Positions 1,578 through 44,494 are shown, counted from the stretch's first letter. The stretch is 47,327 nucleotides of DNA from Candidatus Micrarchaeota archaeon (GCA_964408425.1 CAYOZI010000004.1:1-47327), one strand, 5' to 3'. Notes: a model not told the origin generated them from the letters alone. Program-made: numbers and translations.

Positions 1578-4500
1578 GTGATTATGGTGGGTTTGTCCAA
1601 CAAGCTTTTCTTACTAGCCGTTTTAGTCGGAGTGCTGGCTTTTGCAACCGGCACCCAAGCTTATTCCCAGCAGGGAATATGCAGTGCTAACGGAATTTCA
1701 ACGGGTTCGGACTGCGTTTTCAGGAACAGCCCTGAAACCATTCTGCCGGACGGTTCTTACTCTTACTCGTGCAACGCAGGAACTGCCAACGGACGGCTTG
1801 TCAGCAAATACCAGAACGGCTGCATCGGCACGACTTACTATGACTTTTCGGGCTCGTCTGCGAACATCCAAATCAAAAACAGGATTCTGACGGTGGGCGA
1901 TTACTGCGTGGCAGCGCCTACTTACAATTCTGTCCAGTGCGGTTACACCGACTATTCGGATTCAACCCCTTCGGACGGCGGTTATTACGATGCCGGCGAC
2001 ACGTACAACGATTATTCGACTGAAAACAATTACTACGACTATCCCGACGGAAGCGACTATTCTTCCTACGGCGGGTATTGCGGAAACGGGTATTGTGAGT
2101 ATGGAGAAAACGCGTGGAATTGCGCGCGGGACTGTTACAACCCGTTCGGCTCCCACTATTACTCTTCCTGCACCTTGAATTCGTTCCCTAGAAGCGTTTA
2201 TGCGGGGCAGTGGAGCGACATCGTCGTTACCTACACCGATTTGTTTTACTCCCCTTACACGATTCCCGTGAGCTGCGGAAACGGTTACGTTGCATACGCA
2301 TACGGTTCTTACGGGACTACGGGCACTTCGTTCGCCAGGTGTTATTATCCGAATGCGGGTTTGTACTACCAAACGGCTTACGCGGGCGGAATCGGTTGTA
2401 GCGCTTCTTTCGTACAGGTTTATCCCCAATCCACCACGCTTCCTCCTTCTAACGGGAATGACGGCAATGATGGAAACGGGGATAATGGGAATGGCGTTTC
2501 CCAAGCCCAGTGCTCGGTTATTTCCAACCCTGCCGAATTGACGCAGTCGGGCGTTTCAACAATCCGCGTTTATTACTCGGGCTTGAACAACGCGCCTGTG
2601 GGCGCGAGCGTCGCTTGCGGAGACGAGCCCGCGACCGTGAAGGAAGCTTCTTGTTCCAACGGCGTATGCACGACCCAATGCGCTTACACTCCCTCGAGAT
2701 TGCCTTATTACGCTGATGTGGATGTATTGCTGAAGGTTTCCTCGACCGATTCGTTGAGGTGCACTCCGGCTTTCGTCGCCATCAAAGCATCAACTCCTTC
2801 GGGAGACGGAAACGGTAACGATAACGGCAGCGGCAATAACAATAATGGAAACAGCAATGCCCCTGCTCCTGTTTCAAACCCCTCTTGCGCTATTCTTGCC
2901 AACCCGAATTCATTGCAGGACAACGGAACTTCGAAAATAACTGTTTTGTACCAGGATTTCGGAAACCAGAGCGTTCAAACCGCCAAGGTGTTTTGCGGAA
3001 ACCAGGCTGGTGAAGAGCCCAACGCCGCTTGCCCGGGCGGGGAGAACGGAATGTGCAATTCGGTTGATTGCGTTTATACCGCTCCTTCCGCTTATCCGAG
3101 GACTTTCAACGTGAGGGCCGCGATCGGAAGCGAGGTTTGCTCTTCGACTACAGTCACGCTTTACGGAAACAATCCTACCCCGCAGCCTCCGACTCCAGAG
3201 CAATTCGGCGGAATGGTGGTAACCGTTTCGGATTCATCCTCTTCCGCTCCGATAGCGAATGCTTTCGTCATCGTTTTCAAGAGCGGGGCGGCTGTTGATA
3301 CGGGTTTCACCGATTCTAATGGCGTAGTGAGCTTCACCGACTTGAAAGTGGGCGGTTATTCGCTTTCAGTTTCGAAAACAGGTTATTCTACCGCTTCCTC
3401 GACCGCGGCCGTTGCTGCGGATGAAAATTCGGGCGTTTCGATTTCCTTGTACAATGTTTTCGCCTCGCAATCTTGCGGCGTTTCACTGGTTTCTTCAATT
3501 GTCAAGCCAGACCAGATGACGGGAGTAAGAATAAATTACGACGGTTTTTCCTCGGCCCCTTCGGCAGTAGTGTCTTGCGATTCCAATGACGTTCCCGCTT
3601 CCTGTTCCAATCCGGTTAACGGAAAAGGCTCTTGCACCGCGCAGTGTTCTTTCGGAACTGAAAATTCTTATCCGCAAACCAAGCAGGTGAGCGGGTTTTT
3701 GAATTCAAACGTCGTTTGCTCTTCGGCTTTCGCCACGCTTAATGCGCCCGCTCCAACTCAAGCTACTCTCTTGACTAGGGTTTCGGAATGCGGTTCGGGC
3801 AAGGCGTTGCAAAGTGCAAGCGTTCTTGTGGACGGAACGACCCAATTGTATTCCGATTCTGACGGGGTCGCTTCTCTTTCCGTAGACCCGAATTCCGTTT
3901 ATACTATAGAAGTTTCAAAGAACGGTTTTGTTTCGGCTCAATTCACCGCCCAGGTTTTGGGTGCGGGAACGGGCGTTTCGAAAAGCGTTTGCCTGAACGC
4001 CATTCCGCAGAATGCGGTTCAGGACAATTGCGATTTCAATTCCGTTTTGATAAAAAGCCCCGTTTGCCCGTATTCAGTAACCCCGCAGCCTTACCAAGTG
4101 AAAATTTCCAGCAAAAACTCTACTGACAACATTACGGTTTCCATTCTCTATTCGACGAACGCCTTGACCGGCGCGTCGAGCGTCGTTTTGCTTCCGTTGC
4201 AACAGACTATCGTCGATTTCAATTCCACTTTGAGCGACGTGGTTGGAGCGAAGAACGCGATCGTTTCGTTCGCTTCGCAATCGTGCACTCGCAACATCGC
4301 CCTTCAAGCTTGTTCCAGCGGCGGCTTGACTCTCGAGATTCCTGAGAATTCGAAAACCGCCATAGCGGGCCAGGACGCTTGTTTCGACGTTTTGTTGAGA
4401 AACCGCGGTTTGGCGAGCGGAAAAGTAGTGATGACTTCCACTTCGAGCGACTCTTCGGTGACCGGAACGTTTTCGGAAAAGGAATTCACGATTTCCTCGC

Positions 4501-6638
4501 AGGAAACGAAGCAGCTGGAGTATTGCGTGAAAGCGCAGGGCAGCGGACAGAAGAGTTTCGTTTTGAACGCGGTCAGCGCGATGGGAGACGCTACCGCGAG
4601 CGCGGTTTTGACCATTCCCTCTTCGGCCAGCATTTCGACGAATGCCGGTTCCTGCATTTCGCTTGATGCCGATTCAACCGTTCAGAATGTGAATGTAGTT
4701 TTGACGAACAACGCGTTGGATGGCGACTACGTAGCGGAATTGATCGGTTTCGACGATCCGAATGAAGATGGCCTTCAGGCGCAGATAGTCCAGGACAAGA
4801 TTTACGATTTTGAAAAGGGAACGCTGAGGACTCTGGTGCTGAGGCTGAACCCGTTCAACTCCCAGGCTGGAGAGCACAGGTTCGACTTGCTTTTGAAGAA
4901 AGACGGGGTCGTTGCCATGCAGCAGAACATTTGTTTCGATATAGACGAAAACCGCAACCAGGCTGTTGCGTTAAACCCGTTGTCCCTGACGATTCAAGTG
5001 GGCAAGGCGGCTTCTTCGTTCTTGACCGTTGAAAACACGGGCAACATGAAGGTCACGTACTTCGTTTCCACTGCCGAAGACTTGCCCGTTCAAATATATC
5101 CCGACACTTTCTCGCTCGCGCCAGGAGAAAAGGAGGAAGTTGAAATCCAACTGACCACGCTCCAGTCGACCAGGCTGGGTTCTTACTCCATTCCGGTGCG
5201 CGTTGTTTCCAAAGCTAGCGAGGATGAAACTTATTCCGTAACCGTTTATTGCGGTAACGGCTTGAGCAAAACCGTCGCTTGCGAAGGCGGGGCCAACTCG
5301 TGCAGCGTTTCTTGCGACTACCAGAGCAACGGTTTGTATACGGTAACTTCTTCGATCGGAGGCGAGACTTGCGCTTCGACTCAAGTGCGCGTTGTCGAGA
5401 ACTATACCGATTCTTGTTATCTCTCGTTCAACCCCCAGGTGATAAAGCAGGATAATTACGCTGTTTTGACCGTGAACTACAGGGATTTGAGTGCTGGAGA
5501 GCAGGGCAACTTTACGTTGAATTGCGGCAACGGGCAGACTGCGGTAGTGCAGAATTGCGTTGGAAACACGGGCGCTTGCTCGGCGCAGTGCTATTACCCT
5601 GACGAGGGTTCTTTCGTAGCTTCCGCGCAGTCGGCGAATTATTCTTGTTCAACCGCCCAGATCGCGGTTGTGGACGACGGTTCCATTTGCAGGCTTTCCG
5701 CGCAGACGAACGTCCAGAGGAATACCGCTAATACGATAACCATGACTTACGACGTTTCCGAACTGCCTTCGGAAAGGGCGTTGTTGCTGGATTCCGTGAA
5801 AATGCTTGTCAACGTTGTCGCGGGCGCCCAGTCTTTCGAGCCCGAGGAATCAAGGAACATAATCGTTACCGCCCCCTCGTCTCTAGACCTACTGCCAGGT
5901 TCGACTGCATTATTGCCCATTACCGTGAAGAACAACGACCGTTTCGAGCTGAATACGGTGATCGTTTATTTGACGAACTTGCCTGCAGGCGTTTCGGTAA
6001 CCCAGCCTCCGGCGTTTTCGCTCGAGCCGGGCGCCAGCGCAACTCGCAACATTGTTTTGACCGCTTCGCAGGAAGCGCCGATCGCGTTGAGCACGGCGAG
6101 GATCAAGGTGGAATCGGGCGTTTTCGTAGCTCCGGACAAGAGCGTTGCCATAAACGTGCGCACTTCAACAGGCAAAGAGCTTTTGGTGTCCGAGGGAGAA
6201 CCGTCGTTCTCGTTCTCTTCAAAGGAAAACCTGACTGAAATAACCGTTTCCATTCCGGTTACGAACAACGAAAACACTGCCAGCGTGATAACAGCTTCGG
6301 CGGACTTGCCTCCTGGCTGGAGGTTCGGCTTTGCAGCCGTTTCATTGCAGCCTGGCCAGACGTCTTTGCTGGAGTTCAAACTTGTTTCCGAACAATATGA
6401 TGACAAGGAATTTGATGCCGTGATAAGGCTGCAGAATACTGAAAATAAGGTGAAGACCATTCCGCTGGCCATCCCCTCTAAGTCGAGCGCCAGCGGGTTG
6501 AGCGGCTTGTTCACCGCTTCTTCAACCACGGGCATAATCGTGCTGTTGCTGATAATCGGCATAGTGCTTGCGGGGTATTTCTTTTACAACTCGCGCGAAA
6601 CGCAGAAAAAGCTGACTGAAGATATTGAAAAGGATTAA
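1578..6638 (+). CDS. Giant secreted, C-terminally membrane-anchored surface protein (1686 aa) with repeated six-cysteine modules, CarboxypepD_reg-like domains and Ig/CARDB-like repeats
   Basis: Uninterrupted 5 kb ORF. N-terminal signal peptide (LFLLAVLVGVLAFATGTQA). At least 6 copies of a ~90-aa Cys-patterned module. Asn/Gly/Asp low-complexity linkers. Two MVVTVSD.../SECGSG... beta-sandwich segments. C-terminal TM helix plus a basic tail. Confidence 0.8.
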   Translation: MIMVGLSNKLFLLAVLVGVLAFATGTQAYSQQGICSANGISTGSDCVFRNSPETILPDGSYSYSCNAGTANGRLVSKYQNGCIGTTYYDFSGSSANIQIKNRILTVGDYCVAAPTYNSVQCGYTDYSDSTPSDGGYYDAGDTYNDYSTENNYYDYPDGSDYSSYGGYCGNGYCEYGENAWNCARDCYNPFGSHYYSSCTLNSFPRSVYAGQWSDIVVTYTDLFYSPYTIPVSCGNGYVAYAYGSYGTTGTSFARCYYPNAGLYYQTAYAGGIGCSASFVQVYPQSTTLPPSNGNDGNDGNGDNGNGVSQAQCSVISNPAELTQSGVSTIRVYYSGLNNAPVGASVACGDEPATVKEASCSNGVCTTQCAYTPSRLPYYADVDVLLKVSSTDSLRCTPAFVAIKASTPSGDGNGNDNGSGNNNNGNSNAPAPVSNPSCAILANPNSLQDNGTSKITVLYQDFGNQSVQTAKVFCGNQAGEEPNAACPGGENGMCNSVDCVYTAPSAYPRTFNVRAAIGSEVCSSTTVTLYGNNPTPQPPTPEQFGGMVVTVSDSSSSAPIANAFVIVFKSGAAVDTGFTDSNGVVSFTDLKVGGYSLSVSKTGYSTASSTAAVAADENSGVSISLYNVFASQSCGVSLVSSIVKPDQMTGVRINYDGFSSAPSAVVSCDSNDVPASCSNPVNGKGSCTAQCSFGTENSYPQTKQVSGFLNSNVVCSSAFATLNAPAPTQATLLTRVSECGSGKALQSASVLVDGTTQLYSDSDGVASLSVDPNSVYTIEVSKNGFVSAQFTAQVLGAGTGVSKSVCLNAIPQNAVQDNCDFNSVLIKSPVCPYSVTPQPYQVKISSKNSTDNITVSILYSTNALTGASSVVLLPLQQTIVDFNSTLSDVVGAKNAIVSFASQSCTRNIALQACSSGGLTLEIPENSKTAIAGQDACFDVLLRNRGLASGKVVMTSTSSDSSVTGTFSEKEFTISSQETKQLEYCVKAQGSGQKSFVLNAVSAMGDATASAVLTIPSSASISTNAGSCISLDADSTVQNVNVVLTNNALDGDYVAELIGFDDPNEDGLQAQIVQDKIYDFEKGTLRTLVLRLNPFNSQAGEHRFDLLLKKDGVVAMQQNICFDIDENRNQAVALNPLSLTIQVGKAASSFLTVENTGNMKVTYFVSTAEDLPVQIYPDTFSLAPGEKEEVEIQLTTLQSTRLGSYSIPVRVVSKASEDETYSVTVYCGNGLSKTVACEGGANSCSVSCDYQSNGLYTVTSSIGGETCASTQVRVVENYTDSCYLSFNPQVIKQDNYAVLTVNYRDLSAGEQGNFTLNCGNGQTAVVQNCVGNTGACSAQCYYPDEGSFVASAQSANYSCSTAQIAVVDDGSICRLSAQTNVQRNTANTITMTYDVSELPSERALLLDSVKMLVNVVAGAQSFEPEESRNIIVTAPSSLDLLPGSTALLPITVKNNDRFELNTVIVYLTNLPAGVSVTQPPAFSLEPGASATRNIVLTASQEAPIALSTARIKVESGVFVAPDKSVAINVRTSTGKELLVSEGEPSFSFSSKENLTEITVSIPVTNNENTASVITASADLPPGWRFGFAAVSLQPGQTSLLEFKLVSEQYDDKEFDAVIRLQNTENKVKTIPLAIPSKSSASGLSGLFTASSTTGIIVLLLIIGIVLAGYFFYNSRETQKKLTEDIEKD

Positions 6639-6666
6639 GCGCGGAAAAAAGAGGGGGTTTTGTGAA

Positions 6667-8682
6667 ATGCGCGGGAAAACCTTTGCATTCGTTTTAGCGG
6701 TTGTCGCACTAATCTCATTTCCTTCCTTTTCCCACGCCGATTCTTCCTTGTCCTTAAACCCGGGAAGCCTCGCCGCTTGCCCTTGCGATCCTTTCTATTA
6801 CGATCTGGACGTTTACAGCGACCAGGCTGACGTTTTCGACCTGTACTTTTCCCCGAGGGAAAACTTTTCTTATTTCCTGAACCCGCAGGTTCCCGTCCCC
6901 GCTTCTTCAACCGTCAAAACCACGCTCGTGTTGAATACGCATTGCGAAATGCCGCACGGCAATTATTCGTTCACCGTAACGGCCGTAGGCAGGAAATCCT
7001 CGACTTCAATCCAAGGAAATGCGATAGTCAAGAAATGCAGGGGTTTGGAGTTGTCCATGCCGCCGCAGCAGAGCGTTTGCGCCGGTTCGAGCCAAAGCAT
7101 TTCCCTATCCTTGCGCAACAACGGCGTTTTCGAAGAGCAGGGGAGATTGGTTTTCGACGGTTTGCCCAAATTCTCCTACTACCTGGCTGACGATTCTTAC
7201 GATTTGAATCCAGGAGAGTCGAAAAACTTTTTGCTTTCACTGCAGCCTTCATCAAGCACGCCTCCGGCCAGCCTGCAATACAGCGTAAAAGCGGGTTCGG
7301 CAATCGCGACTGCGGCCCTCGACATTTCTTCCTGCTCTTTTTCCGAGCCTTTCAAAATTTCCATCACCCCTTTGGCTGAAAACGTGCAGGTTTGCGCCGG
7401 CGGAAAGAAAACGGTTTCATTCAAAATAAAGAACGAAGGGCCTACCGGCGTGTTCAAGCTCGAGTCCAGCGGGCTAAGCGGAAGCTTTCCGGTGAGTTCA
7501 ATCACCGTTTCAGGGCGTTCGAGCAGGGAAGTGAATTTCATCATCGATGCCGCGCAGTTCCAGCCCGGAAATTCAACTCTCACAGTCGAAGTGCTCGGCC
7601 CGTCGGCTTCGGACTCGGCTTCGGTTGACGTGAAAGTGCTGGATTGCCCGAGCGTAGTGTTCGGGGATTTGCAGTTATGCTTAGGTGAAACGGGAAGCAT
7701 TCCCTTCTCCTTCAAGAACAACAATCCCGAAGCGCAGTATTACTCTTTCACGGTTTCGGCTTTGATTCCGTCTAAAGTCGAGCCTGCAGACGCGTTCATT
7801 CCTTCCAATTCCGCCGTTTCATCCGCGGTTTTCGTGACCGGAAGCGCGCTTGGCGTTTATCCGGTGAAAGTTTTTGCGAACGCGACTTTGCTGAGCACCC
7901 CGAAGATTATCGTGAAGGCATGCGAACAGCCGCCTTCGGACGTTGAAATCCAAGATGCGAACTTTACGATGGAGTACGGCGTGTGGCAGAAGGCTTTCGT
8001 CCAAACCTCCCCGGCCGTTTCCAACGCCATAGTTTCGCTTCCTTCAGACCTGTTTTCCATTTCAGCTTCTTTCGTGGAAGGAGAAAACGTTTTCTTCACG
8101 GTAAAGCCCTTGAGGCAGGGGATTTTCATTTCGACCCTTTCGCTCAACGTTTCCGGAAGGAGTTTCGAAAGGCAGTTTTCCTTTACGATTACGCAACCGC
8201 TGGTTTCCATCAATGAAAAAACCCAGTCGACGCTGAACTCCGAAAACGGGTTGCTTGACAATACGGTCGTTTACTCGGTGAAAAACCTCGGTTCCGAAAG
8301 CATTTCGCTTGCCCCGTCTTCCGACGTTCCCAACGCCACCTTCTCTCCGGAAACGCTTGAATTGAATTCGGGCGAGGAAAAGGAGCTTTCGCTGGCAGCG
8401 AAAGGCATAAGCGAAAACCAGACTGTGAAACTGTTCTTGTCGGCGGGCGAAAAGACCTACGCCCTCGAATCAAAGGCCTTGAACGTGCCTTCGGGAAGCG
8501 CAAGCACGGGTTTCTTCACCGCATCGCGCACCATCGGGCTTTTCGCGCTGGTGGTTTTCGTGGCGATAATCGCCCTGGCTTTCGTCTTGAAGAAGGAGTT
8601 CGAAGAGCAGAAGACGCTTGACGTGGAAACGGAAAGCGGGGTCGAACCAGGCAGCAAGGAAAAAGAAAAGAAAAAGAAGTAA
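6667..8682 (+). CDS. Secreted, C-terminally anchored surface protein (~670 aa) with repeated Ig/CARDB-like domains
   Basis: ORF 6625..8682. The likely start is the ATG at 6667 (MRGKTFAFVLAVVALISFPSFSHA signal peptide), preceded by GAGGGGG. Repeated C-x-G...S..L.N.G segments. C-terminal TM helix followed by a KEKEKKKK tail. Confidence 0.75.
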   Translation: MRGKTFAFVLAVVALISFPSFSHADSSLSLNPGSLAACPCDPFYYDLDVYSDQADVFDLYFSPRENFSYFLNPQVPVPASSTVKTTLVLNTHCEMPHGNYSFTVTAVGRKSSTSIQGNAIVKKCRGLELSMPPQQSVCAGSSQSISLSLRNNGVFEEQGRLVFDGLPKFSYYLADDSYDLNPGESKNFLLSLQPSSSTPPASLQYSVKAGSAIATAALDISSCSFSEPFKISITPLAENVQVCAGGKKTVSFKIKNEGPTGVFKLESSGLSGSFPVSSITVSGRSSREVNFIIDAAQFQPGNSTLTVEVLGPSASDSASVDVKVLDCPSVVFGDLQLCLGETGSIPFSFKNNNPEAQYYSFTVSALIPSKVEPADAFIPSNSAVSSAVFVTGSALGVYPVKVFANATLLSTPKIIVKACEQPPSDVEIQDANFTMEYGVWQKAFVQTSPAVSNAIVSLPSDLFSISASFVEGENVFFTVKPLRQGIFISTLSLNVSGRSFERQFSFTITQPLVSINEKTQSTLNSENGLLDNTVVYSVKNLGSESISLAPSSDVPNATFSPETLELNSGEEKELSLAAKGISENQTVKLFLSAGEKTYALESKALNVPSGSASTGFFTASRTIGLFALVVFVAIIALAFVLKKEFEEQKTLDVETESGVEPGSKEKEKKKK

Positions 8683-12244: not shown

Positions 12245-12772
12245 TTAATTGGGCGCGGAGTGGAACGCGGGTTGTTTTACCTCGGTTTTTTCCAACGCCC
12301 ACAGCAACGCCGGAGAAGCGAGGAGGGCGAAAGCCGCGTTTCCGAGCAGGTGGCTGACCGTAAAGGGAACCTGCCCCATGAGCGTGACGGCTAGGGATTG
12401 CTTGAACTGCCATCCGAACAGCAATGCCGTGGTTATGTCGAAAAGCAGCGTTCCGGCGATTGAAAACAAAAGAAAGTTTTTCCTCGATGCTTTTCTTTCG
12501 GTGAAAAACCATCCTGCGGCAAAGCCGATTGCCGCGTAAGCCATTCCCGTATACAGCGTCCACAATCCTATCCTTCCGGTAAAAAAGTCTATCGCCACTA
12601 AAGCCAAAAGCGCAAACACGAGCCCCGCGTATTTCCCGTATTTCTTTGCGAAGGGCATCGTGAAGCCCATTATCGGCTCGACGTTGGGCGCGATGGTGAA
12701 AAGCCTCATTAAAATGCATAGCGCCAGCCCGCAGGCAAACTTCAACGAATCTAAAACCTTCATTTCTTCCAC
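12245..12772 (-). CDS. Small polytopic membrane protein, possibly a solitary ECF-type S-component (vitamin uptake)
   Basis: 175 aa with about 5-6 TM helices and an S-component-like size and hydropathy. It overlaps the 3' end of the alpha-toroid gene by 13 nt. No ECF A/T genes are present in the window. Confidence 0.4.
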   Translation of the reverse strand: MEEMKVLDSLKFACGLALCILMRLFTIAPNVEPIMGFTMPFAKKYGKYAGLVFALLALVAIDFFTGRIGLWTLYTGMAYAAIGFAAGWFFTERKASRKNFLLFSIAGTLLFDITTALLFGWQFKQSLAVTLMGQVPFTVSHLLGNAAFALLASPALLWALEKTEVKQPAFHSAPN

Positions 12773-14349
12773 CTTCTGTAAAAAGAAAATATAATTGCTA
12801 TCGCGGCAAGGCTAATAAACGCTATCGGGCTGGCGGAGAACGAAATGTTTTTCTCGTCCAAACTGAAGGAAAACCACGGCGTCGGCTGGGAAACCGCAAG
12901 GGCAGTCAAAGGCGAAGTTTCTTTCGGCTGGCTTTGCGTTTCCACCTCTTTTTGCTGGGGTGGTGCGGAGGGCAAAGCTTGCGCGGTTGCTTCAGGTGCG
13001 GAAATGGTAGGGCGAGGCGTAGGAACGAACGCGGTGGGATAAGGAGTGGCTATGACCACCTTGAATTCGGGTACTGGGATGGGCGTCGGCGTGGGCGTCG
13101 GCGAGGGGGCGGGCGTAGGCGTTGAACTTATATCCACGACTTCGAAAACCCCTCCTTTGTTCAAAACGCTTCCGAACTTCGGTTTCACCATCGCCAAAAC
13201 CGAATAATTCCCTTTCAATTCGGTTTGCGTGAAAACCGCTTGGAAAACGCCATCTTGTTTTTTCTCCGCGTTCAACTCGCTCGTGCTTCCTGAAGGGTTG
13301 GTGATTACGAGCGAAACGCTATCCACCGCCCCTTCGGCATTGACCGTAACGGTTTGAGCATTGCCTTTCACTATCGGGGTATTGAAAGACAGGGTTGCGG
13401 AAAACGGGGCGCAGTAGGACGATTCCCCCTCCGCAATGTTTTTTGCAGCGCTTAACGCCACGCCGGTGTCCAGCGCATTGGAATCCGTCGAAGAGCGAGC
13501 CGGGTCCGCGAAACCTCCGTCCTGATTTTGGTTCAAGCCGACGTAGTTAGCCGTTGCCGAAGAAAAACCATCAAGCCCCGCGTTCTTGAACGCAATCGAA
13601 GCGAGCGAAGGGCCGTATGTTTTTCCGGAATTCCCGAAGCAATTTCCTGCACTGTTCTTCAAGAATACTATTGCATTGATGCTCTGTAAGCTTTGCCCCT
13701 CGCCGTTCTCCTGCAGAGCCATTAACGCCAATGCGGTCGTTGAAACTAGGTCCGGTCCAAGCGAGTACAATTGCGTTTCGGCGCTGTTGAACGATTGCTT
13801 GAAAGAACCGTCGGCTTGCTGCAGGGAATAGAGGAATGAAACCGCGCCTTGCCTGGTTTCATCATCGAGGTTTCCGCTTTGCTTCAACGCCATCAAAGCC
13901 AACGCCGTGTCGGTTGCCGTTTCAACCTGCTCCCACTTTTGCTTGGTCCAGTCCGAATCGCTGCAATTCTCCGTGCATTCATACAACCCCTTGAAACCGC
14001 CGTTATGCCATTTGAAAAGCAATAACTTTTCCTTCAGCCTGGTTTCATTCAAATTTCCCGCAAAACCGGTTTTTTCCAACGCCCGCCATTCGGCAGCAGG
14101 CAAGTCCGCCTCCGCCCAGCTCCACGAGTTTTCGTCGTTCAAATCCGCCTCGATTTTTCCGGCAATCTGGGTTTGGAGCGAGGGGTTGGAGTTCCAATCT
14201 CCCAACGCTGCGAGTGCGAACGCGTTTCCTCCTGCAAAACCGTAATCACCGTTCGAATCATGGGAGTCTAACCACTGCAATGCATTATCGCCCGAAAAAG
14301 CGAAGGCAAAGGAGGCCGCAACCAGAATCGCAAAAACAATTTTCTTCAT
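12760..14349 (-). CDS. Secreted prenyltransferase/squalene-cyclase-repeat (alpha/alpha toroid) protein with an Ig-like domain, a PT linker and a C-terminal TM anchor
   Basis: Signal peptide MKKIVFAILVAASFAFA (ATG at 14347-14349). Repeated QxxDG[GS][FW]-type motifs (SNGDYGFAGG, WHNGGFKG, QQADGSFKQS, NQDGGFADP). TPTPAPSPTPTPTPIP linker. C-terminal TM helix plus RRWKK. Confidence 0.75.
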   Translation of the reverse strand: MKKIVFAILVAASFAFAFSGDNALQWLDSHDSNGDYGFAGGNAFALAALGDWNSNPSLQTQIAGKIEADLNDENSWSWAEADLPAAEWRALEKTGFAGNLNETRLKEKLLLFKWHNGGFKGLYECTENCSDSDWTKQKWEQVETATDTALALMALKQSGNLDDETRQGAVSFLYSLQQADGSFKQSFNSAETQLYSLGPDLVSTTALALMALQENGEGQSLQSINAIVFLKNSAGNCFGNSGKTYGPSLASIAFKNAGLDGFSSATANYVGLNQNQDGGFADPARSSTDSNALDTGVALSAAKNIAEGESSYCAPFSATLSFNTPIVKGNAQTVTVNAEGAVDSVSLVITNPSGSTSELNAEKKQDGVFQAVFTQTELKGNYSVLAMVKPKFGSVLNKGGVFEVVDISSTPTPAPSPTPTPTPIPVPEFKVVIATPYPTAFVPTPRPTISAPEATAQALPSAPPQQKEVETQSQPKETSPLTALAVSQPTPWFSFSLDEKNISFSASPIAFISLAAIAIIFSFYRRWKK

Positions 14350-14376
14350 CCACACCACCGGAAACGAAACTCTGTC

Positions 14377-14413
14377 CATCCAATATTTAATCCGATTGGA
14401 TGATACATCCAAT
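14377..14413. promoter_or_regulatory. Three CATCCAAT/ATTGGATG half-sites (including a perfect 8-3-8 palindrome) in a divergent promoter
   Basis: CATCCAAT at 14377-84. ATTGGATG-ATA-CATCCAAT at 14395-14413, abutting TTTATAAATA (14413-22). Confidence 0.5.
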
Positions 14414-14499
14414 TTATAAATACGAAAACGGTGTTTTTGAAAGGGTGCGGCATTTTGGACTTTTCACTTTTCAGGCTTCCTTCGAAATCCTACGGCCCG

Positions 14500-15057
14500 A
14501 TGCCCAAGTTCGTCTGGGAGGATGCGCTGAGGGGCTTCTGGCTGATCGGCAAAAAACAGCCTTTGGGAAGGAAGGATTTGGCGGACTCTATGGATTTGGG
14601 AGAGGGAACGGCAAGGTCGATAGTGTCTTTTTTGGAAAAAAAGGGTTTGGTGAAAAAAATCCGGGGCGGGTGCGTGCTTTCGGAAAGCGGGAAAGGCGTT
14701 TTCGCGAGGCTTTCCCTGAAAGTCTTGTCGTCGCGCCAGCTTCCCCCGCTGTTTTCCACCATGAATAGGCCCTCGTTTTGCCTGCAGTGCGTTTTGACCG
14801 AAATGCCGTCCGTGAAAAAATCGATCGAAGCGAGGGATTGCGCGGTGAAAGCGGGTTCGGACGGCGTCCTTTCGCTTTCTTTTTCGAACAAGAGGTTTTT
14901 GTTTGCTGGAACGAGAGATTCGGTTTCGCAAAAAGACGCGGGAATAATTTCCGAATACTTTCCCCCGCGAGAAGGGCAGGTTTTCATACTCAGCTTCGCG
15001 AAAAAACCGTTAGGCCGGGAAAGGGGGGCTTGGGCTGCGTTCTTGGGCCTCGCGTAA
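14500..15057 (+). CDS. Winged-helix transcription regulator with an archaeal DUF4443-like C-terminal domain
   Basis: LGRKDLADSMDLGEGTARSIVSFLEKKGLV is a wHTH motif. The ATG at 14500 lies downstream of the TATA box at 14413-22. The track's 14431 start lies only about 10 nt downstream of that TATA box (14413-22), upstream of the TSS it would predict. Confidence 0.55.
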   Translation: MPKFVWEDALRGFWLIGKKQPLGRKDLADSMDLGEGTARSIVSFLEKKGLVKKIRGGCVLSESGKGVFARLSLKVLSSRQLPPLFSTMNRPSFCLQCVLTEMPSVKKSIEARDCAVKAGSDGVLSLSFSNKRFLFAGTRDSVSQKDAGIISEYFPPREGQVFILSFAKKPLGRERGAWAAFLGLA

Positions 15058-15070
15058 AAATGAGTTTTTT

Positions 15071-15550
15071 TCAAGACGCGTTTTCAGAAGGCGCGTACGC
15101 CCCCAAGTCTGGGCTTTCCAGCCTCCACTCCAGCACGCCTTCTTCCGAAATCCTGAAGTCGCTTGCGCCCACCGGCGCGAGGTTTCCATTAAAATAATAC
15201 TGCCAGTATTCACCTTTTCCCGAATCGTCGGCAAAACCTTCCACGGAATAAACGTACGCTCCGAACGAATAGTTTTTGTAGAGCAGTTCGAACGCTTTGG
15301 AAGAGACGGCCAATGCGCTTTCGCCTTCGTCGGCCTCGACGGTTTTAGAGTTGAAATAGTTTTCGGAAGGAATGCTGACGCTCACGTTGATGCCGAGCTT
15401 TTCCAAGGAGGCGGTCGGAGATGGCGTGGGCGTTTGGATTATGGCTGTAGGCGTTAGTGATGGTGTAGGCGCGGGGGGAGCGGCGTTTTGAACGCAGCCG
15501 GCAAGCACGAACGAAAACGCCATCAGCAACACGATAATTCCTTTTTTCAT
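15071..15550 (-). CDS. DUF4430 (transcobalamin/intrinsic-factor beta-domain-like) lipoprotein
   Basis: MKKGIIVLLMAFSFVLAGC lipobox-like signal. PT linker. C-terminal GEYWQYYFNGNLAPVGASDFRISEEGVLEWRLE matches the DUF4430 signature (YW.Y.vNG....G...Y.l..gD.i.w). Confidence 0.7.
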   Translation of the reverse strand: MKKGIIVLLMAFSFVLAGCVQNAAPPAPTPSLTPTAIIQTPTPSPTASLEKLGINVSVSIPSENYFNSKTVEADEGESALAVSSKAFELLYKNYSFGAYVYSVEGFADDSGKGEYWQYYFNGNLAPVGASDFRISEEGVLEWRLESPDLGAYAPSENAS

Positions 15551-15560
15551 ATTTTCCGTT

Positions 15561-16067
15561 TCACCTTTTTTCGAATTTGCATGCGACTGCATAAAGCCAT
15601 CCGCCGAGCCTGTTGAAAAACTTGAATGCGACGGGCCTCAATTTCTTCCCCTCGAGCATGGGAAGCAAGGCTATTTCGGCTTCCCTGCTTCTCACGCGCG
15701 CTTCACTGAACGCGATGGCTGCTTTGTTCCTGAAGCGGATGAAGTGCTTGAATTCTTTTCCTTCACAAAGCCCGTCTATCCACCCTTCGAGCTTTCGAAC
15801 ATCGTTTTCTTCAACCGGGCTTTTCACCGGCCCGCCGGTGCGCCCGAACGAAATCTCACCGCACGTCTGCCACAATTTTTCCTGAACCAGGTCTACGGCC
15901 TGCTGCATTGTTTTATTCTTGCACTCTGACCTCGCATTGTCCAACGCGGCTTGCAGCGAATCTATCTTGCCTATCGCGATTATTGACGGGTCGTTCTTTT
16001 TGAGCTTGATTCCGCAAAGCGTCTTGGTGAAGCCAGAATCGCCAGTTCCGGTGTAGAGTTTCGGCAT
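15561..16067 (-). CDS. PduO-type ATP:cob(I)alamin adenosyltransferase
   Basis: MPKLYTGTGDSGFT..., IIAIGKIDSLQAAL, and a C-terminal FNRLGGWLY helix bundle. ATG at 16065-16067, 20 nt after the nrdJ stop. Confidence 0.85.
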   Translation of the reverse strand: MPKLYTGTGDSGFTKTLCGIKLKKNDPSIIAIGKIDSLQAALDNARSECKNKTMQQAVDLVQEKLWQTCGEISFGRTGGPVKSPVEENDVRKLEGWIDGLCEGKEFKHFIRFRNKAAIAFSEARVRSREAEIALLPMLEGKKLRPVAFKFFNRLGGWLYAVACKFEKR

Positions 16068-16086
16068 TTCAAACACACCCGACTTT

Positions 16087-18897
16087 TCACGAGCACCCGC
16101 TTGTGCCTCCACAGTTGAAGCATTTGTAACAGGATCCGCTTCTCACCATGATGCTTCCGCAATCGTCGCACACGGGCGCGTCGCTCTGGTTTTCGAACGA
16201 TTTGGTTACCCCCTTCTCCCCGGCAGAGTCGGAGGGAATGAAGCGGACTTTCGACTCGTCTTTCAAAAGTTTTTCCGTCGGAACCCCGCTTTCGGAATAT
16301 TGGGGCTTTACCTTGTCGGCTGCGGTCTTTCCTTCCGCGAGCTTCGTCTGCACCGTATTCCTTTCGTCCGGATTCAAGCCGAGTTCTTCCAAATCGTCGT
16401 CCCCCAAAAACTTGAACGCCAGCCACTTGAAGATGTAATCCATAATGCTTTTCGCAAAACGGATCTGCTCGTTTGTCGTCACTCCCGACGGCTCGAAGCG
16501 CATGTTGCAAAACTTCTTGGTGAGAACTTTGAGGGGAACTCCGTATTGCATGGCGATCGATATTGCCGTCGAGAATGCGTCCATCATTCCCGAAATCGTG
16601 CTTCCCTCTTTCGCCATTGTCACGAATATCTCCCCGGGCCTTCCGTCTTCGTACAAACCGACGGTTATGTAGCCTTCGTGCCCTGCCACGTCGAACTTGT
16701 GGGTAATTGCCTGCCTTTCGTCCGGCAAGCGTTCGCGCATGGGCCTGTAAACGATCCGCTCTTTTCCAGCTCCCGCGTCTCCCTTTTGTTTTGCCGAGCT
16801 GGTAGTCAAAGGCTGCGTGCGCTTGGAACCGTCGCGGTATATTGCAATCGCCTTCAGCCCTCCTTTCCACGCTTCCATGTAGGCGTTTTCTATATCCTCG
16901 GCAGTCGCTTCAGCCGGAAGGTTGACTGTTTTGGAAATGGCTCCTGAAATGAACGGCTGCACCGCGCTCATCATCCTCACGTGACCCAGATAGTGTATAG
17001 ACCGGGTTCCTTTGGAGGCTTTGAACGCGCAGTCGAAAATGTCCAAATGCTCTTTCTTCAAATGCGGAGACCCTTCAATCGTCTCGTGCTCGTTCAAGTG
17101 CTGCATGATGTCGGTAATCTCGTTCTTTTTGTAACCGATCTTTTCCAACGCAAGAGGAACAGTTGTGTTGACGATTTTCATCAACCCGCCTCCAACCAGC
17201 CACTTGTATTTTATCAACGCTATATCCGGCTCGACGCCTGTAGTGTCGCAGTCCATCAAAAACCCGATTGTCCCGGTGGGCGCGAGAACTGAAATCTGCG
17301 AGTTGCGGAAGCCGTTTTTCTTTCCGCTTTCCAACGCCCAATCCCACGCTCTCCTCGCCTCTTCAAGCAAATCCGGCTGGATGGAATCGGGAACGGCGTA
17401 GGCAGCATCGCGATGCATCGACATGACGTTCAAAAACGGCTTTTCATTCAACGCGTAACCTTTGAACGTTCCCTGCTTTTTCGCAACCAGCGTGGACGTG
17501 TAATAGGCATACCCGCTCATTAACGCCGTAATCGCAGCGGCGAAATTCCTTCCCTCTTCACTATCGTACGCCAACCCCTCGCTCATCAGCAATGCTCCGA
17601 GATTCGCATAGCCTATTCCGAGAGGGCGGAAGTCGTGGGAGTTGCGCGTAATCGCTTCAGTGGGATAAGACGCGTTGCCCACGACGATTTCCATTGCGGT
17701 TATTATCACCCTTACGGCTTTCCGGAAGCTTTCTATGTCGAAAGTCCCGTCGGGCATGCGGAATTTCATTAAATTCAAGGAAGCCAAATTGCACGACGTG
17801 TCGTCCAAAAACATGTACTCCGAGCAAGGGTTGGATGCGTTTATCCTGTCCGTGTTGGGGCACGTGTGCCACTTGTTGATCGTAGTGTCGAATTGCAATC
17901 CGGGATCCCCGCATATCCACGCCGCTTCGGAAACCTGCCTGAACAAATCGCGCGCTTGATACGAATCCGCCTTTTCCCCGTTGGTAACCATGTGCGTGGT
18001 CCATTCCTTGTTTTCCTCGACCGCACTCATGAATTCGTCCGTCACCCTCACGGAATGGTTGGCGTTCTGGAAATACACGGAACCGTATGCTTCTCCATCA
18101 ACGCTAGCATCGTAACCCGCTTCAATCAGCGCCCAAGCTTTCCTTTCTTCATTGGCCTTGCAGTTGATGAATTCCACGACATCGGGGTGGTCGATGTTGA
18201 GAATTACCATTTTCGCAGCCCTTCGCGTTCTGCCACCGCTTTTAATCACTCCTGCAAACGCATCGAATCCCTTCATGAAACTGACCGGCCCGCTGGCCCT
18301 GCCTGTTGAAAAGCTCAAGTGTTCTTTCGAAGAGCGAAGAACGGAAAAGTTCGTTCCGGTTCCGGAACCGTATTTGAAAAGCATTCCTTCCGTTACGGCC
18401 AAGTTCAAGATGCTTTTCATGTCGTCCTTCAAGGAATTGATGAAGCAAGCTGATCCCTGTGGGTGAGCCTCAATTCCAAAGTTAAACCACACCGGAGAAT
18501 TGAATGCGGCCAGCTGGTTGACGAGTATGTATGTCAACTCGTCTTCGAAAGTCTGCGCTTCCCCCTCGCCGGAAAAATAATTGCCTTGTCTCCCCCAGCT
18601 TGCAATCGTGTTTGCAACGCGTTCAATAAGCTGTTTTACGCTCGTTTCCCTGTTTGCGGTTCCCAATTGCCCGCGAAAATATTTCGAAACCGCGATTTTC
18701 ACCGCCTGCTGCGACCAGGTTGATGGGACTTCAACGTTTTTCTGCGAGAAAATGACTTTTCCGGTCGCATCGGCTATTTCCGCGTCCCTCAACTCCCATT
18801 TTATCTCGTCAAAAGGATTGGTTCCGGGTTTCGTGAAATACCTTTCGAACTTCAATTCGTTTTCGATGGTTCCAGTTACGGCAGTCGGCCTAGTCAT
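16087..18897 (-). CDS. nrdJ: Class II (adenosylcobalamin-dependent) ribonucleotide reductase
   Basis: 936 aa. NPCSEYMFLDDTSCNLASLNL active-site region, PTGTIGFLMDCDTTGVEP, and a C-terminal CxxC...CxxC zinc-ribbon tail. No intein-sized insertion. Confidence 0.9.
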   Translation of the reverse strand: MTRPTAVTGTIENELKFERYFTKPGTNPFDEIKWELRDAEIADATGKVIFSQKNVEVPSTWSQQAVKIAVSKYFRGQLGTANRETSVKQLIERVANTIASWGRQGNYFSGEGEAQTFEDELTYILVNQLAAFNSPVWFNFGIEAHPQGSACFINSLKDDMKSILNLAVTEGMLFKYGSGTGTNFSVLRSSKEHLSFSTGRASGPVSFMKGFDAFAGVIKSGGRTRRAAKMVILNIDHPDVVEFINCKANEERKAWALIEAGYDASVDGEAYGSVYFQNANHSVRVTDEFMSAVEENKEWTTHMVTNGEKADSYQARDLFRQVSEAAWICGDPGLQFDTTINKWHTCPNTDRINASNPCSEYMFLDDTSCNLASLNLMKFRMPDGTFDIESFRKAVRVIITAMEIVVGNASYPTEAITRNSHDFRPLGIGYANLGALLMSEGLAYDSEEGRNFAAAITALMSGYAYYTSTLVAKKQGTFKGYALNEKPFLNVMSMHRDAAYAVPDSIQPDLLEEARRAWDWALESGKKNGFRNSQISVLAPTGTIGFLMDCDTTGVEPDIALIKYKWLVGGGLMKIVNTTVPLALEKIGYKKNEITDIMQHLNEHETIEGSPHLKKEHLDIFDCAFKASKGTRSIHYLGHVRMMSAVQPFISGAISKTVNLPAEATAEDIENAYMEAWKGGLKAIAIYRDGSKRTQPLTTSSAKQKGDAGAGKERIVYRPMRERLPDERQAITHKFDVAGHEGYITVGLYEDGRPGEIFVTMAKEGSTISGMMDAFSTAISIAMQYGVPLKVLTKKFCNMRFEPSGVTTNEQIRFAKSIMDYIFKWLAFKFLGDDDLEELGLNPDERNTVQTKLAEGKTAADKVKPQYSESGVPTEKLLKDESKVRFIPSDSAGEKGVTKSFENQSDAPVCDDCGSIMVRSGSCYKCFNCGGTSGCS

Positions 18898-18969
18898 TGT
18901 CCCACACCCCCTCTTTCAAAAAAAAACAATGCTTCCTTTTTCAACTTTCGCTTTAATTTCCGGAAAAAT

Positions 18970-19413
18970 TCACTTGGAGAGCTTTTCCACTTCCTTGGCG
19001 AATTCCTTCGGGCTTTCGAACTCCTTGTAAATCGAAGCGAAGCGGATGTACGCGACCTTGTCGAGCTTCTTCAGCTTTTCCATGACTATCGCGCCCACCT
19101 TGGTCGAAGGGATTTCAGTCTCCTCCATTCCGCGCAATTCCATTTCAACTTCGGCAACCACGTTGTCCATCTGCTCGACGCTCACGGGGCGCTTGTGGCA
19201 GGACCTTTCTATTCCCGCCCTGAGCTTGTTGCGGTCGAATTTTTCGCGCCTCCCGTCCTTCTTTATTATTATGAGATCCAACGCTTCGGCCCGCTCGTAA
19301 GTGGTAAAACGCTTCTTGCACTTTTCGCACTCCCGCCTCCTTCTGGTGGAGTCTTCCGAATCGCGGCTTTCCAAGACTTCCGTTTCGGGACAACCGCAGT
19401 AAGGACAAATCAT
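18970..19413 (-). CDS. nrdR: NrdR-family transcriptional repressor (zinc ribbon plus ATP-cone)
   Basis: MICPYCGCPETEVLESRDS...RRRRECEKCKKRFTTYE followed by an ATP-cone (IIKKDGRREKFDRNKL...). It sits directly upstream of nrdJ. Confidence 0.85.
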   Translation of the reverse strand: MICPYCGCPETEVLESRDSEDSTRRRRECEKCKKRFTTYERAEALDLIIIKKDGRREKFDRNKLRAGIERSCHKRPVSVEQMDNVVAEVEMELRGMEETEIPSTKVGAIVMEKLKKLDKVAYIRFASIYKEFESPKEFAKEVEKLSK

Positions 19414-19575
19414 GCGACGCGCCTCCTTTCCATTTTTCTTACCCTTTCCCTTCTTTCCGAAAATGCCGGGGGAAGCTGAAAAACAGCAAAAAACCCTCTA
19501 AAAACGCCACTCGTAGCGTTCAGCCTCACAAATAAGCGCTATCGGGTTTTTAAAGCTTTTCCCTTGTTTGAAGGG

Positions 19576-20022
19576 TTAACCGCTGCGCAATAGTTTTACC
19601 GCGGCTTTCAAGACTTTTTTTTCGCTTTCAAAATGAACTTTTTTCAAAGCGGTTTTCGGGGAAGCCAACAAGATTTTTTCTATTCCCTCTTTCCTTCCGT
19701 CTTTAGTCATGCGCGGCTTTTCGTCGGTGAAAACCAAGTACGCGCTCACTTTCCTGAGCAACAGCCCTTTGGGCGCTTCAAAAGAATAAGAAAAAACCCT
19801 TTTCCCCATTTTGATTTTTTTCAACCCCGTTTCCTCTCTCAACTCCCTTTTCAAGCCTTTCTTTGCGCTTTCCCCCTTCTCGAGCTTTCCCTTGGGCAGT
19901 CGCCAGAACGATTGCTTTGTGCGAAACCACTTTCCTTTCTCGAACTTCGCATCGCGTTTTTTCAAAATCAAAATCTTTCCGCCTTTAACTATGACCGCTT
20001 CAACCTGCCCTATGGTCTTCAT
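19576..20022 (-). CDS. Nudix hydrolase
   Basis: Nudix box GKLEKGESAKKGLKRELREETGL. Its start overlaps the upstream gene's stop by 4 nt. Confidence 0.85.
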   Translation of the reverse strand: MKTIGQVEAVIVKGGKILILKKRDAKFEKGKWFRTKQSFWRLPKGKLEKGESAKKGLKRELREETGLKKIKMGKRVFSYSFEAPKGLLLRKVSAYLVFTDEKPRMTKDGRKEGIEKILLASPKTALKKVHFESEKKVLKAAVKLLRSG

Positions 20023-35731: not shown

Positions 35732-35846
35732 GCAGGGGTAGCAAAGCCTGGTCAAATGCGATGGGTTTAGGCGGGTTTCAAGAAATTGAAATTCCTAGAA
35801 AACCCATTCCCCTAGGGGTTCGTGGGTTCAAATCCCTCCCCCTGCA
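35732..35846 (+). tRNA. tRNA-Leu(UAG), class II with a long variable arm, carrying a 30-nt intron at 37/38
   Basis: Acceptor stem GCAGGGG/CCCCTGC. Anticodon stem ATGGG/CCCAT. Loop TT-TAG-G. Intron 35772..35801. BHB: UUUA/UAGA central helix with bulges gg|c and aa|a. Variable arm CCCC-TA-GGGG. Confidence 0.85.
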
Positions 35847-36324: not shown

Positions 36325-36345
36325 TCAAATCCCTCCCCCTGCACT
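36325..36345 (+). repeat. 21-nt direct repeat of the tRNA-Leu 3' end (att-like)
   Basis: TCAAATCCCTCCCCCTGCACT at 35828-35848 (T-loop and 3' acceptor strand of tRNA-Leu) recurs exactly at 36325-36345. Confidence 0.8.
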
Positions 36346-37067
36346 TACTCTTTGCCTATTTCATTCCAAATTCCGTAGAAAAATGCGCGCATGTCGTCAG
36401 ACAACTGCTTTGACTTTATGAGAAATCCAAAAGGCTTATCGGCCCATTCTAAAAAAGCTATCTTGTCCTCACAAATACTAATGCTTTTAGGGATTGGACG
36501 GTTTGTAAACCGCATCTTTATGCCCCTACCTTTAAACAACGATGCAAGTTTTTTCGGTGCGATGCCTTTTACTTCGAGTTTCCTTCCACGTCGTTTGAGG
36601 TCGTATTTCCTGAAGTAATTCTGCATTTCCTCATTGTGACCTTCTTTGTTAGCCGTGAAGAACAAATATTCGCTATATGGAGAAACGTTTCCAATTAATT
36701 CGTCAAACATTACATTTCTGCCTTTTATTCCCTCAAAAACTTCGACCCATCGGTCTTCAACCGCACCCTCATGGCGTCTAAGCAGTTCTGGCAGGGCTGC
36801 CTCTAAGTCGCCCTTTTGTTCGTCAATCATTCTTATTATGTTTTTTGGAGATTTTGCCGTGTAAGTTCTGATCCCACCACTAACGACGTAACTAACCAGT
36901 CCCTTGGTTATCAACTTTCTAAGGCAAAAGTGGACTACTGAATTCTGTAAACCACTTTTTTCTATTATTTTTCCGGCCCGTGCGCTTCCAAGTTCTAGCA
37001 ATGCGAGGTAAATTTCAGCCTCGCTGGGCGTGAAACCCACTTTTTCGAGTACTGCCTTAACTTCCAT
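36345..37067 (-). CDS. TrmB-family transcriptional regulator
   Basis: LEKVGFTPSEAEIYLALLELGSARAGKIIEKSGLQNSVVHFCLRKLITKGLV is a TrmB wHTH, followed by a C-terminal sensor-like domain. Confidence 0.8.
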   Translation of the reverse strand: MEVKAVLEKVGFTPSEAEIYLALLELGSARAGKIIEKSGLQNSVVHFCLRKLITKGLVSYVVSGGIRTYTAKSPKNIIRMIDEQKGDLEAALPELLRRHEGAVEDRWVEVFEGIKGRNVMFDELIGNVSPYSEYLFFTANKEGHNEEMQNYFRKYDLKRRGRKLEVKGIAPKKLASLFKGRGIKMRFTNRPIPKSISICEDKIAFLEWADKPFGFLIKSKQLSDDMRAFFYGIWNEIGKE

Positions 37068-37161
37068 ACGCTATCCTTGTTTTTTCGATTTTTAAAGTTA
37101 TCCTCCAATTTTGGAGGATTAATGGTTATCTGTTTGGCCGAGCGGATAGAATAGGTGAAAA

Positions 37162-38151: not shown

Positions 38152-38157
38152 AATCAT

Positions 38158-42563: not shown

Positions 42564-44167
<1,604 letters not shown>

Positions 44168-44376
44168 AAACAAAAAATCGGTCGGGAACTGATTTTGAAA
44201 AAAAAGAGCGTTTAGTTTGGACGGAATACCCTTATACCTTTAAATCAATCACCCAACTCTTTAAATCGGAAAAATGGCGTCCGTAAAAAAGATTTCTTGT
44301 GAAAAAAATACTCTTCTTCCCCTTTTATGATTATAAAATATGCAATCGCGCCATGTCGCGCCGAGAGCGATAAGTT

Positions 44377-44494
44377 GGGCTCGTGGCGCAGTGGCAGCGC
44401 GCCTGCTTTGCAAGAACCTTTCTTGGCGAAGAAAGCTTCACCAAAGAAGATCCAGAAAAGCAGGAGGCCGTGGGTTCAAATCCCACCGAGTCCA
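44377..44494 (+). tRNA. tRNA-Ala(UGC) in the 16S-23S spacer, with a 46-nt intron at 37/38
   Basis: Acceptor stem GGGCTCG/CGAGTCC with the G3:U70 identity pair. Anticodon stem CCTGC/GCAGG. Loop TT-TGC-A. Intron 44413..44458. BHB central helix UUUG/CAGA with bulges ca|a and aa|a. Confidence 0.9.

Follow-up and report, generated by a model that had tools for sequence, protein, structure and literature searches.

The B12 transporter ECF-CbrT of Lactobacillus delbrueckii, an energy-coupling factor (ECF) transporter, has been shown experimentally to carry vitamin B12 (Santos et al. 2018, PMC5997447; entry 6FNP of the Protein Data Bank, PDB), and its cbrT gene lies in an nrdJ-cbrS-cbrT-pduO cluster dating from 2009 (PMC5997447). 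For BtuM, a small solitary protein of the S-component fold, B12 transport that needs no ECF module has been put forward (Rempel et al. 2018, PMC6072759). Burroughs, Balaji, Iyer & Aravind (2007, PMC1796856) predicted that secreted prokaryotic SLBB proteins, often fused on either side to a toroid, are cooperative B12 scavengers of organisms without B12 synthesis, and reported such genes in CbiO/CbiQ (ECF-type) operons, mainly of Firmicutes. The ECF-like operon lsa1836-1840 of L. sakei encodes separate proteins resembling the alpha and beta halves of transcobalamin, together with an S-component (Verplaetse et al., bioRxiv 10.1101/864751). Here we describe a locus in which related parts are combined in an archaeon: seven adjacent genes at positions 12245-19413 of a 47,327-nt stretch of DNA from a Candidatus Micrarchaeota archaeon (GCA_964408425.1, CAYOZI010000004.1:1-47327; the whole stretch is called the window below), which encode an S-component, an exported toroid protein, a DUF4430 lipoprotein, the adenosyltransferase PduO, the ribonucleotide reductase (RNR) NrdJ and two regulators.

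We put the probability at about 0.7 that this locus is a corrinoid (vitamin B12) salvage module in which a dedicated regulator stands between two transcription units. Capture of B12, its import and its adenosylation for NrdJ are well supported by context, because the cluster is conserved in Micrarchaeota and colinear in bacteria of the Candidate Phyla Radiation (CPR); this functional logic, first proposed in an earlier note on the same DNA, was consistent with all tests made. The genomes of DPANN archaea and CPR bacteria are tiny and provide for the synthesis of few cofactors, and little has been learnt of the routes by which hosts supply them; to our knowledge, experimental work on archaeal B12 uptake has dealt with the BtuFCD type only. 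The window is archaeal, with a 16S-tRNA-23S operon at its right end (Rfam scan). The nearest relatives of the cluster proteins come from metagenome-assembled genomes of Candidatus Micrarchaeota, one of them labelled Norongarragalinales, and on these sequence grounds the host is assigned to the Micrarchaeota (DPANN).

Gene families, layout and recurrence of the locus

All seven adjacent open reading frames (ORFs) that the earlier note had claimed were present where it placed them, and each of its domain assignments was tested by a Pfam/NCBIfam or a profile search. Four genes on the minus strand, beginning with nrdR (18970-19413) and continuing with nrdJ (16087-18897), pduO (15561-16067) and the DUF4430 gene (15071-15550), are separated by gaps of 72, 19 and 10 nt, matching the operon layout with gaps of 10-72 nt that had been described. 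The toroid gene (12760-14349, 529 aa from MKK) and the S-component gene (12245-12763) follow on the same strand. The stop codon of the former overlaps the ATG of the latter at 12763 as ATGA, implying translational coupling, and 172 aa from this ATG is a more likely length of the S-component than 175 aa from the GTG at 12772. Between the two groups, the regulator gene occupies the plus strand (14431-15057, or possibly from an ATG at 14503). It is transcribed away from the toroid gene and towards the DUF4430 gene, whose end is 13 nt from its own.

The proteins of nucleotide and cofactor metabolism were assigned as had been proposed. NrdJ (936 aa, with a C-terminal TSCPD domain) exceeded the cut-offs of both NF005122 (1444 bits against 859) and TIGR02504 (597 against 400), as expected of a class II (adenosylcobalamin-dependent) RNR, and also matched Ribonuc_red_2_N. 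NrdR, with a zinc ribbon and an ATP-cone, scored 182.1 bits against TIGR00244 (cut-off 124.65). The 168-aa PduO scored 85.3 bits against Cob_adeno_trans (PF01923; cut-off 24) and matched solved PduO/MMAB adenosyltransferases, consistent with a PduO-type ATP:cob(I)alamin adenosyltransferase; its 72 bits against TIGR00636 were under the strict cut-off of 108.

The membrane protein, described by the earlier note as having the size of a solitary ECF S-component, gave no significant Pfam or NCBIfam match when searched alone. A profile of its 16-member family, searched against all PDB sequences, matched CbrT (6FNP_A) with an E value of 6.5e-7 over residues 11-147 (137 aligned) and matched no other S-component, BtuM included, even at E <= 10. 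The motifs PNV(E/Q)P, WT and (Y)H..GN are common to the family and CbrT. The 6FNP match sharpens the earlier description: by profile similarity, the protein and the cobalamin S-component CbrT are distantly homologous. Among the 16 homologues, eight matched PF07155 (ECF riboflavin S-component) and five DUF6580, and the NCBI name of the orthologue is 'DUF6580 family putative transport protein'. Only four strong hydrophobic segments were found in the window protein by a simple hydropathy scan.

A scan of one genome per GTDB species yielded 211 genomes encoding an S-component relative, and the best 80 loci comprised 13 archaeal and 67 bacterial ones. At least five Micrarchaeota lineages have kept the cluster. 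L001/L015, L002, L012-14 and L016 share the order nrdR-nrdJ-pduO-DUF4430, reversed regulator, toroid-S-component, and NrdJ bears inteins in L012-14. The toroid is 53% identical to that of the window in L001/L015 and 43% identical in L002, both flanks of which differ, and the variable cluster proteins are 43-55% identical between the window and the relatives with the cluster. Partial or rearranged clusters occur in L018 and L024, and the DUF4430 gene adjoins the S-component gene in L021 and L022; of the 13 archaeal loci of the species scan, six link the S-component to B12 genes. In related Micrarchaeota NrdJ carries one to three inteins (Intein_splicing and LAGLIDADG matches; L012 996-5132, L013 1008-7535), and the NrdJ of the window has none.

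Because the cluster recurs in such diverged relatives with different flanks, as the claim of a conserved adjacency implied, the adjacency is not a matter of chance. An arrangement without functional meaning, produced by the packing of small genomes or by syntenic inheritance among close relatives, is extremely improbable. Long synteny is indeed shared by L001, L004-7 and L012-14, and includes unrelated flanking genes (glutamate dehydrogenase, a KaiC-like ATPase, NUDIX). However, L002 retains the cluster between flanks that both differ, L018 and L024 retain it in rearranged form, and the five gene families recur, ordered differently, in dozens of CPR species, so that the archaeal rearrangements and the CPR loci have already effectively refuted this explanation.

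The bacterial S-component loci come almost all from CPR bacteria (Patescibacteria). In local HMMER searches of their flanks, a class II RNR was found in 44 of the 67, usually directly adjacent, a toroid in 25, PduO in 24 and DUF4430 in 20; at least one partner gene was present in 48. For comparison, we estimate that in genomes of about 1 Mb any one partner gene would by chance be found no more than 10 kb away from a given gene roughly 2% of the time. The usual CPR order is S-component, NrdJ, PduO, DUF4430, toroid, and colinear examples are L042 (2100-8100), L061 (7650-13320) and L090 (7580-12970), in all three of which Pfam bears out the assignments. The gene string shared by CPR and DPANN suggests inter-domain exchange. 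Flanking the module in L061 (5690-7405, 14910-16658) and L090 (5480-7198, 13524-15239, 15870-17591) are two or three ORFs of similar size, about 572 aa, to which Pfam gave no match.

The two surface proteins

The DUF4430 lipoprotein (159 aa) consists of a signal peptide ending in the lipobox LAGC, a Pro/Thr linker and an SLBB domain of about 100 aa. It scored 43.1 bits against Pfam DUF4430 (PF14478; cut-off 23.8), and among the solved proteins of the PDB the family profile matched the haptocorrin beta domain best (4KKI residues 320-428, E 1.4e-3), with intrinsic factor next. These results bear out its description as a homologue of the transcobalamin beta domain, and the haptocorrin match is in line with what Burroughs et al. 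concluded on SLBB domains (PMC1796856).

The toroid protein comprises a signal peptide, an alpha/alpha toroid of about 285-290 aa, an immunoglobulin (Ig)-like beta-sandwich, a Pro/Thr linker, a juxtamembrane motif and a transmembrane helix, and the signal peptide together with the C-terminal anchor implies that it faces outwards. The two surface proteins are thus exported separately, as had been claimed, one with a lipobox and the other with a signal peptide and a C-terminal helix. An AlphaFold2 (AF2) model built on an 11-sequence alignment (predicted local distance difference test score, pLDDT, 90.3) shows the toroid followed by a single Ig-like beta-sandwich. Before the helix, all close homologues share the motif WF(S/A)(F/L)S-x-DEK (window 12760-12900), whose role could lie in sorting or in contact with the S-component. 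Disulfide-bond genes (DSBA, DsbB, thioredoxin) adjoin the module in the unrelated loci L002 (12196-13131), L061 (13887-14432) and L090 (13015-13440), and the window toroid has four cysteines, perhaps a sign of disulfides in the exported proteins.

In Pfam the toroid matched SQHop_cyclase_C (27.9 bits, cut-off 26.1), with Prenyltrans below its cut-off and TED_complement at 17.1 bits below a cut-off of 22. Its sequence profiles matched repeats of squalene-hopene cyclase (SHC) and of prenyltransferases best in the PDB, and transcobalamin-2 appeared, with E 0.25-0.75, only with the profile of the CPR toroids. The motifs DxDD and CxEQ are absent from the window toroid and its homologues (eight homologues checked for DxDD), and DDxxD is absent from the window toroid. 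The lack of DxDD and CxEQ, together with export, indicates that the toroid is neither a cyclase nor a thioester protein. A class II terpene cyclase or prenyltransferase beta subunit was therefore rejected, since only the repeat and the fold are alike, the catalytic motifs are absent and the protein is exported. We also rejected an alpha2-macroglobulin/complement thioester-containing domain (TED), given the missing CxEQ, the TED_complement score and the one Ig-like domain after the toroid. The earlier note had made its claim depend on the toroid not being of cyclase or macroglobulin type; these folds are its best matches, but weak ones, and their motifs are absent.

The toroid family is small, with 66 representatives among 1.84 billion proteins. 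In nine of the 45 full-length representatives (about 20%; for example P0009) the toroid is fused to DUF4430, and these fusions connect the two window proteins in Rosetta-stone fashion. Homology to the window toroid extends to the CPR toroids that adjoin DUF4430 (hhalign E 6e-10 over 220 columns), and all four of these tested matched Cobalamin_bind (PF01122) at E <= 0.01, the best, from L061, with 27.9 bits against a cut-off of 25; in the same proteins SQHop_cyclase_C outscored Cobalamin_bind. Because only these CPR homologues match PF01122, the apparent kinship of the window toroid to the transcobalamin alpha domain is clan-level and transitive only. Of the proposal that the toroid is the alpha half of a transcobalamin, the alpha/alpha fold and the secreted, anchored state have stood, and a specific homology to the transcobalamin alpha domain, for which neither PF01122 nor the top 50 Foldseek matches gave a sign, has not.

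Several observations weigh against the salvage reading, and they concern the energy source and gene context of the S-component, the nature of the toroid, and the ligand. Firstly, no EcfT/CbiQ or ECF-type ATPase gene was found among the scanned window ORFs, which were not all of its ORFs, and the sole ABC system of the window, which is encoded at 37162-39656 and made up of an NMT1-type substrate-binding protein, an ATPase and a permease, is not of the ECF kind. By analogy with BtuM and some BioY proteins, which are reported to act without an ECF module (PMC11109136), the S-component may act alone, or it may use a module encoded elsewhere. S-component relatives in L008, L011, L017, L019, L023 and L026 are distant from any B12 gene. 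In L008 (8708-10555) and L011 (983-6002) the lone S-component gene adjoins genes of DNA replication, Cdc6 in one of the two and PCNA, primase and GINS in the other.

Secondly, Foldseek found only weak matches of the toroid in the PDB (E 1e-5 to 1e-3, TM-score <= 0.51). The nearest solved folds were the alpha2-macroglobulin/complement TED with macroglobulin (MG) domains, SHC, the terpene cyclase MstE and the beta subunit of geranylgeranyltransferase (GGTase); transcobalamin was absent from the top 50 matches. PF01122 did not match the window toroid at E <= 0.1. The AF2 model of the P0009 fusion was confident for the toroid, with pLDDT of 30-57 for DUF4430 and an unreliable domain arrangement. 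The toroid is also missing, and so dispensable in some lineages, in L021, L022 and L025, the last being the complete genome of Ca. Fermentimicrarchaeum limneticum. Here a secreted, C-terminally anchored protein of 432 aa with Ig-like repeats (L025 8691-9989) takes the place of the toroid, and its gene overlaps that of the S-component. The N-terminus of this protein is a probable divergent SLBB-like domain (hhalign E 1e-4, probability 56%); that it is a divergent toroid was rejected (hhalign probability 0.06%). The arrangements in L025, L021 and L022 suggest a constant core of an SLBB protein and the S-component, which the toroid frequently joins.

These features of the toroid, its nearest folds and the missing PF01122 match among them, would fit a locus in which only DUF4430 and the S-component handle B12 and the toroid has another surface role, such as host adhesion, glycan or lipid binding, or that of a protease-inhibitor-like TED. 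TED_complement is matched by 36 of the 45 toroid relatives, and the toroid is absent from some CPR loci, as from the three archaeal ones above, though DUF4430 or an SLBB-like domain accompanies the S-component. We nevertheless consider such a role unlikely: the toroid follows DUF4430 directly in 20 or more CPR loci and is fused to it in the nine representatives mentioned, its gene is translationally coupled to that of the S-component, it has no thioester or catalytic motif, its CPR homologues match Cobalamin_bind, and transcobalamin itself pairs exactly these folds (PMC1796856).

Thirdly, Verplaetse et al. read the homologous alpha/beta pair of L. sakei as serving heme uptake and tested it as such (bioRxiv 10.1101/864751). 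The surface pair and the S-component might by this precedent import another tetrapyrrole or cofactor, either heme or a precursor such as cobinamide, rather than complete cobalamin; cobinamide is also carried by ECF-CbrT (PMC5997447), and Burroughs et al. suggested a 'distinct metabolite' for the archaeal SLBB proteins (PMC1796856). We regard this as quite improbable, since the locus shows tight and recurrent linkage to NrdJ and PduO, both of which need a complete corrinoid and have no link to heme, since CbrT is the one S-component that the family profile matches, and since neither CobS/T/U remodelling genes nor heme-related genes were found in the part of the window ORFs that was scanned. In the archaeal version described here, a direct linkage ties the SLBB protein to NrdJ, PduO and a CbrT-like protein, which argues for B12 over another metabolite.

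Regulation and the remainder of the window

The regulator is a winged helix-turn-helix (wHTH) protein with a C-terminal DUF4443 domain (PH0730 family). It scored 40.7 bits against DUF4443 (cut-off 27), 38.1 against CggR_N and 37.2 against PH0730-like_N, and its sole solved relative is 2P8T (PH0730, E 7.6e-10), whose function is not known. These matches and the plus-strand position agree with the divergently transcribed wHTH regulator of the earlier note. The intergenic region between the toroid and regulator genes (14350-14430) has the features of a divergent promoter/operator. TTGGATG-N3-CATCCAA, a perfect palindrome of 17 bp, occupies 14396-14412, one more half-site, ATCCAAT, lies at 14378-14384, and A/T-rich boxes resembling TATA are found to either side. 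The palindrome occurs once in the window, three of whose four ATCCAAT heptamers lie in 14350-14430, and its core is near-invariant in four Micrarchaeota lineages, while the neighbouring non-coding DNA has diverged. The adjacent wHTH-DUF4443 protein is the obvious candidate for binding the 14378-14413 operator. The regulator gene keeps its position in L001, L002, L012, L016 and L018, and in L025 it is divergent from the pair formed by the capture protein and the S-component. Rfam searches of the window for a cobalamin riboswitch or other regulatory RNA gave only rRNA and tRNA.

NrdR is a regulator known mainly from bacteria. In L001, L012, L018 and L024 its gene is a neighbour of nrdJ, and in L022 of the DUF4430 and S-component genes. 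A search of the window for an NrdR box of the bacterial type, with up to three mismatches allowed, gave none. Upstream of nrdR (window 18970-19580), a TATA-like box followed by TAGCG-N17-CGCTA is common to the window, L001 and L012.

Elsewhere in the window, a TrmB-family regulator gene adjoins those for the NMT1/THI5-like binding protein, ABC ATPase and permease (36345-39656), which may form an importer of a thiamine precursor or of sulfonate type. Two very large ORFs (1686 and 685 aa; 1578-8682), kept beside the cluster in close relatives, probably encode cell-surface proteins; the orthologue of the 1686-aa ORF contains CarboxypepD_reg repeats. Rfam found two long tRNAs of 115 and 118 nt (35732-35846 and 44377-44494), which ARAGORN missed and which probably both contain introns; one of them sits in the 16S-23S spacer. 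The 16S match (42564-44168) spans 1605 nt against a model of 1478 nt, with about 127 nt of insertions.

Proposed route of the cofactor and comparison with known systems

From the family assignments and the gene linkage we infer the identity of the ligand, the cooperation of the two surface proteins and the source of energy. Corrinoid would be captured at the cell surface by the DUF4430/SLBB lipoprotein, probably together with the anchored toroid, and handed to the S-component, whose homology to CbrT suggests that the corrinoid crosses the membrane through it; an energising ECF module would be encoded elsewhere in the genome or would not be needed. PduO, by its family, would then adenosylate cob(I)alamin, and the adenosylcobalamin would serve NrdJ, by its family a user of this cofactor. 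Expression would be divided between two putative units, nrdR-nrdJ-pduO-DUF4430, which NrdR may tie to the nucleotide pool, and toroid-S-component, which the wHTH-DUF4443 protein may control, along with its own gene, by binding the conserved palindrome.

The same gene set is widespread in CPR, so the module appears typical of genome-reduced organisms that need the cobamides of their neighbours, and since its parts lie beside a class II RNR in dozens of CPR species, the supply of DNA precursors in these probably relies on scavenged cobamides. More tentatively, and with clear doubt, a wider picture may be drawn: a five-part module (SLBB lipoprotein, toroid, CbrT-like S-component, PduO, NrdJ) exchanged between CPR and DPANN could be the standard cofactor route for NrdJ in ultra-small host-dependent cells, with an archaeal S-component that works without a dedicated ECF module, and with the riboswitch replaced by a new corrinoid- or nucleotide-responsive wHTH-DUF4443 repressor acting on TTGGATG-N3-CATCCAA.

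The claim that a system of this kind was new proved overstated in view of the 2007 prediction, the split pair of L. sakei and the L. delbrueckii cluster, and what stands of it is the archaeal version, which was not found in the literature searched. Nor did that literature contain the distinct S-component family, the protein regulators or the wide distribution in CPR, and nothing relevant was found on DUF6580 or on B12 uptake in CPR or Micrarchaeota. The locus is an uncharacterised variant of a theme already known in bacteria. It offers a concrete route for cofactor capture, made up of a pair of small surface proteins, a small membrane protein and a regulator for which a candidate operator is defined, and its compact form, its wide occurrence in organisms that are poorly understood and its direct testability make it of interest.

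Comparison with the described systems defines this variant. As in L. delbrueckii, a small CbrT-homologous S-component is found beside NrdJ and PduO in an organism presumed to need external B12, with the same logic of import, adenosylation and delivery to a class II RNR. In contrast to L. delbrueckii, the host is an archaeon, the S-component belongs to a distant, separate family (DUF6580 and PF07155 matches), two surface proteins (DUF4430 and toroid) are added, no EcfAA'T was seen among the ORFs scanned in the 47 kb, and NrdR and the wHTH-DUF4443 protein are the apparent regulators, with no cobalamin riboswitch found. BtuM shares the S-component fold, and the transport without an ECF module proposed for it may also apply here; there is no profile similarity between the two proteins, and the cysteine-ligation and decyanation chemistry of BtuM is not implied for the window protein. 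The L. sakei operon embodies the same idea of a split transcobalamin with an S-component, but it is bacterial, has a full ECF module (an A/A' fusion and T) and is not linked to NrdJ or PduO; the archaeal module could settle whether the L. sakei proteins bind heme or corrinoid. Transcobalamin, intrinsic factor and haptocorrin (PF01122 plus PF14478; 2BB5, 2PMV, 4KKI) likewise combine, outside the cell, an alpha/alpha toroid and a beta-grasp SLBB domain. Here, however, the halves are separate polypeptides, one tethered by lipid and the other by a C-terminal helix, an Ig-like domain follows the toroid, and delivery would be to an S-component instead of an endocytic receptor. Such a prokaryotic two-chain counterpart of transcobalamin could show how the B12 carriers of animals arose.

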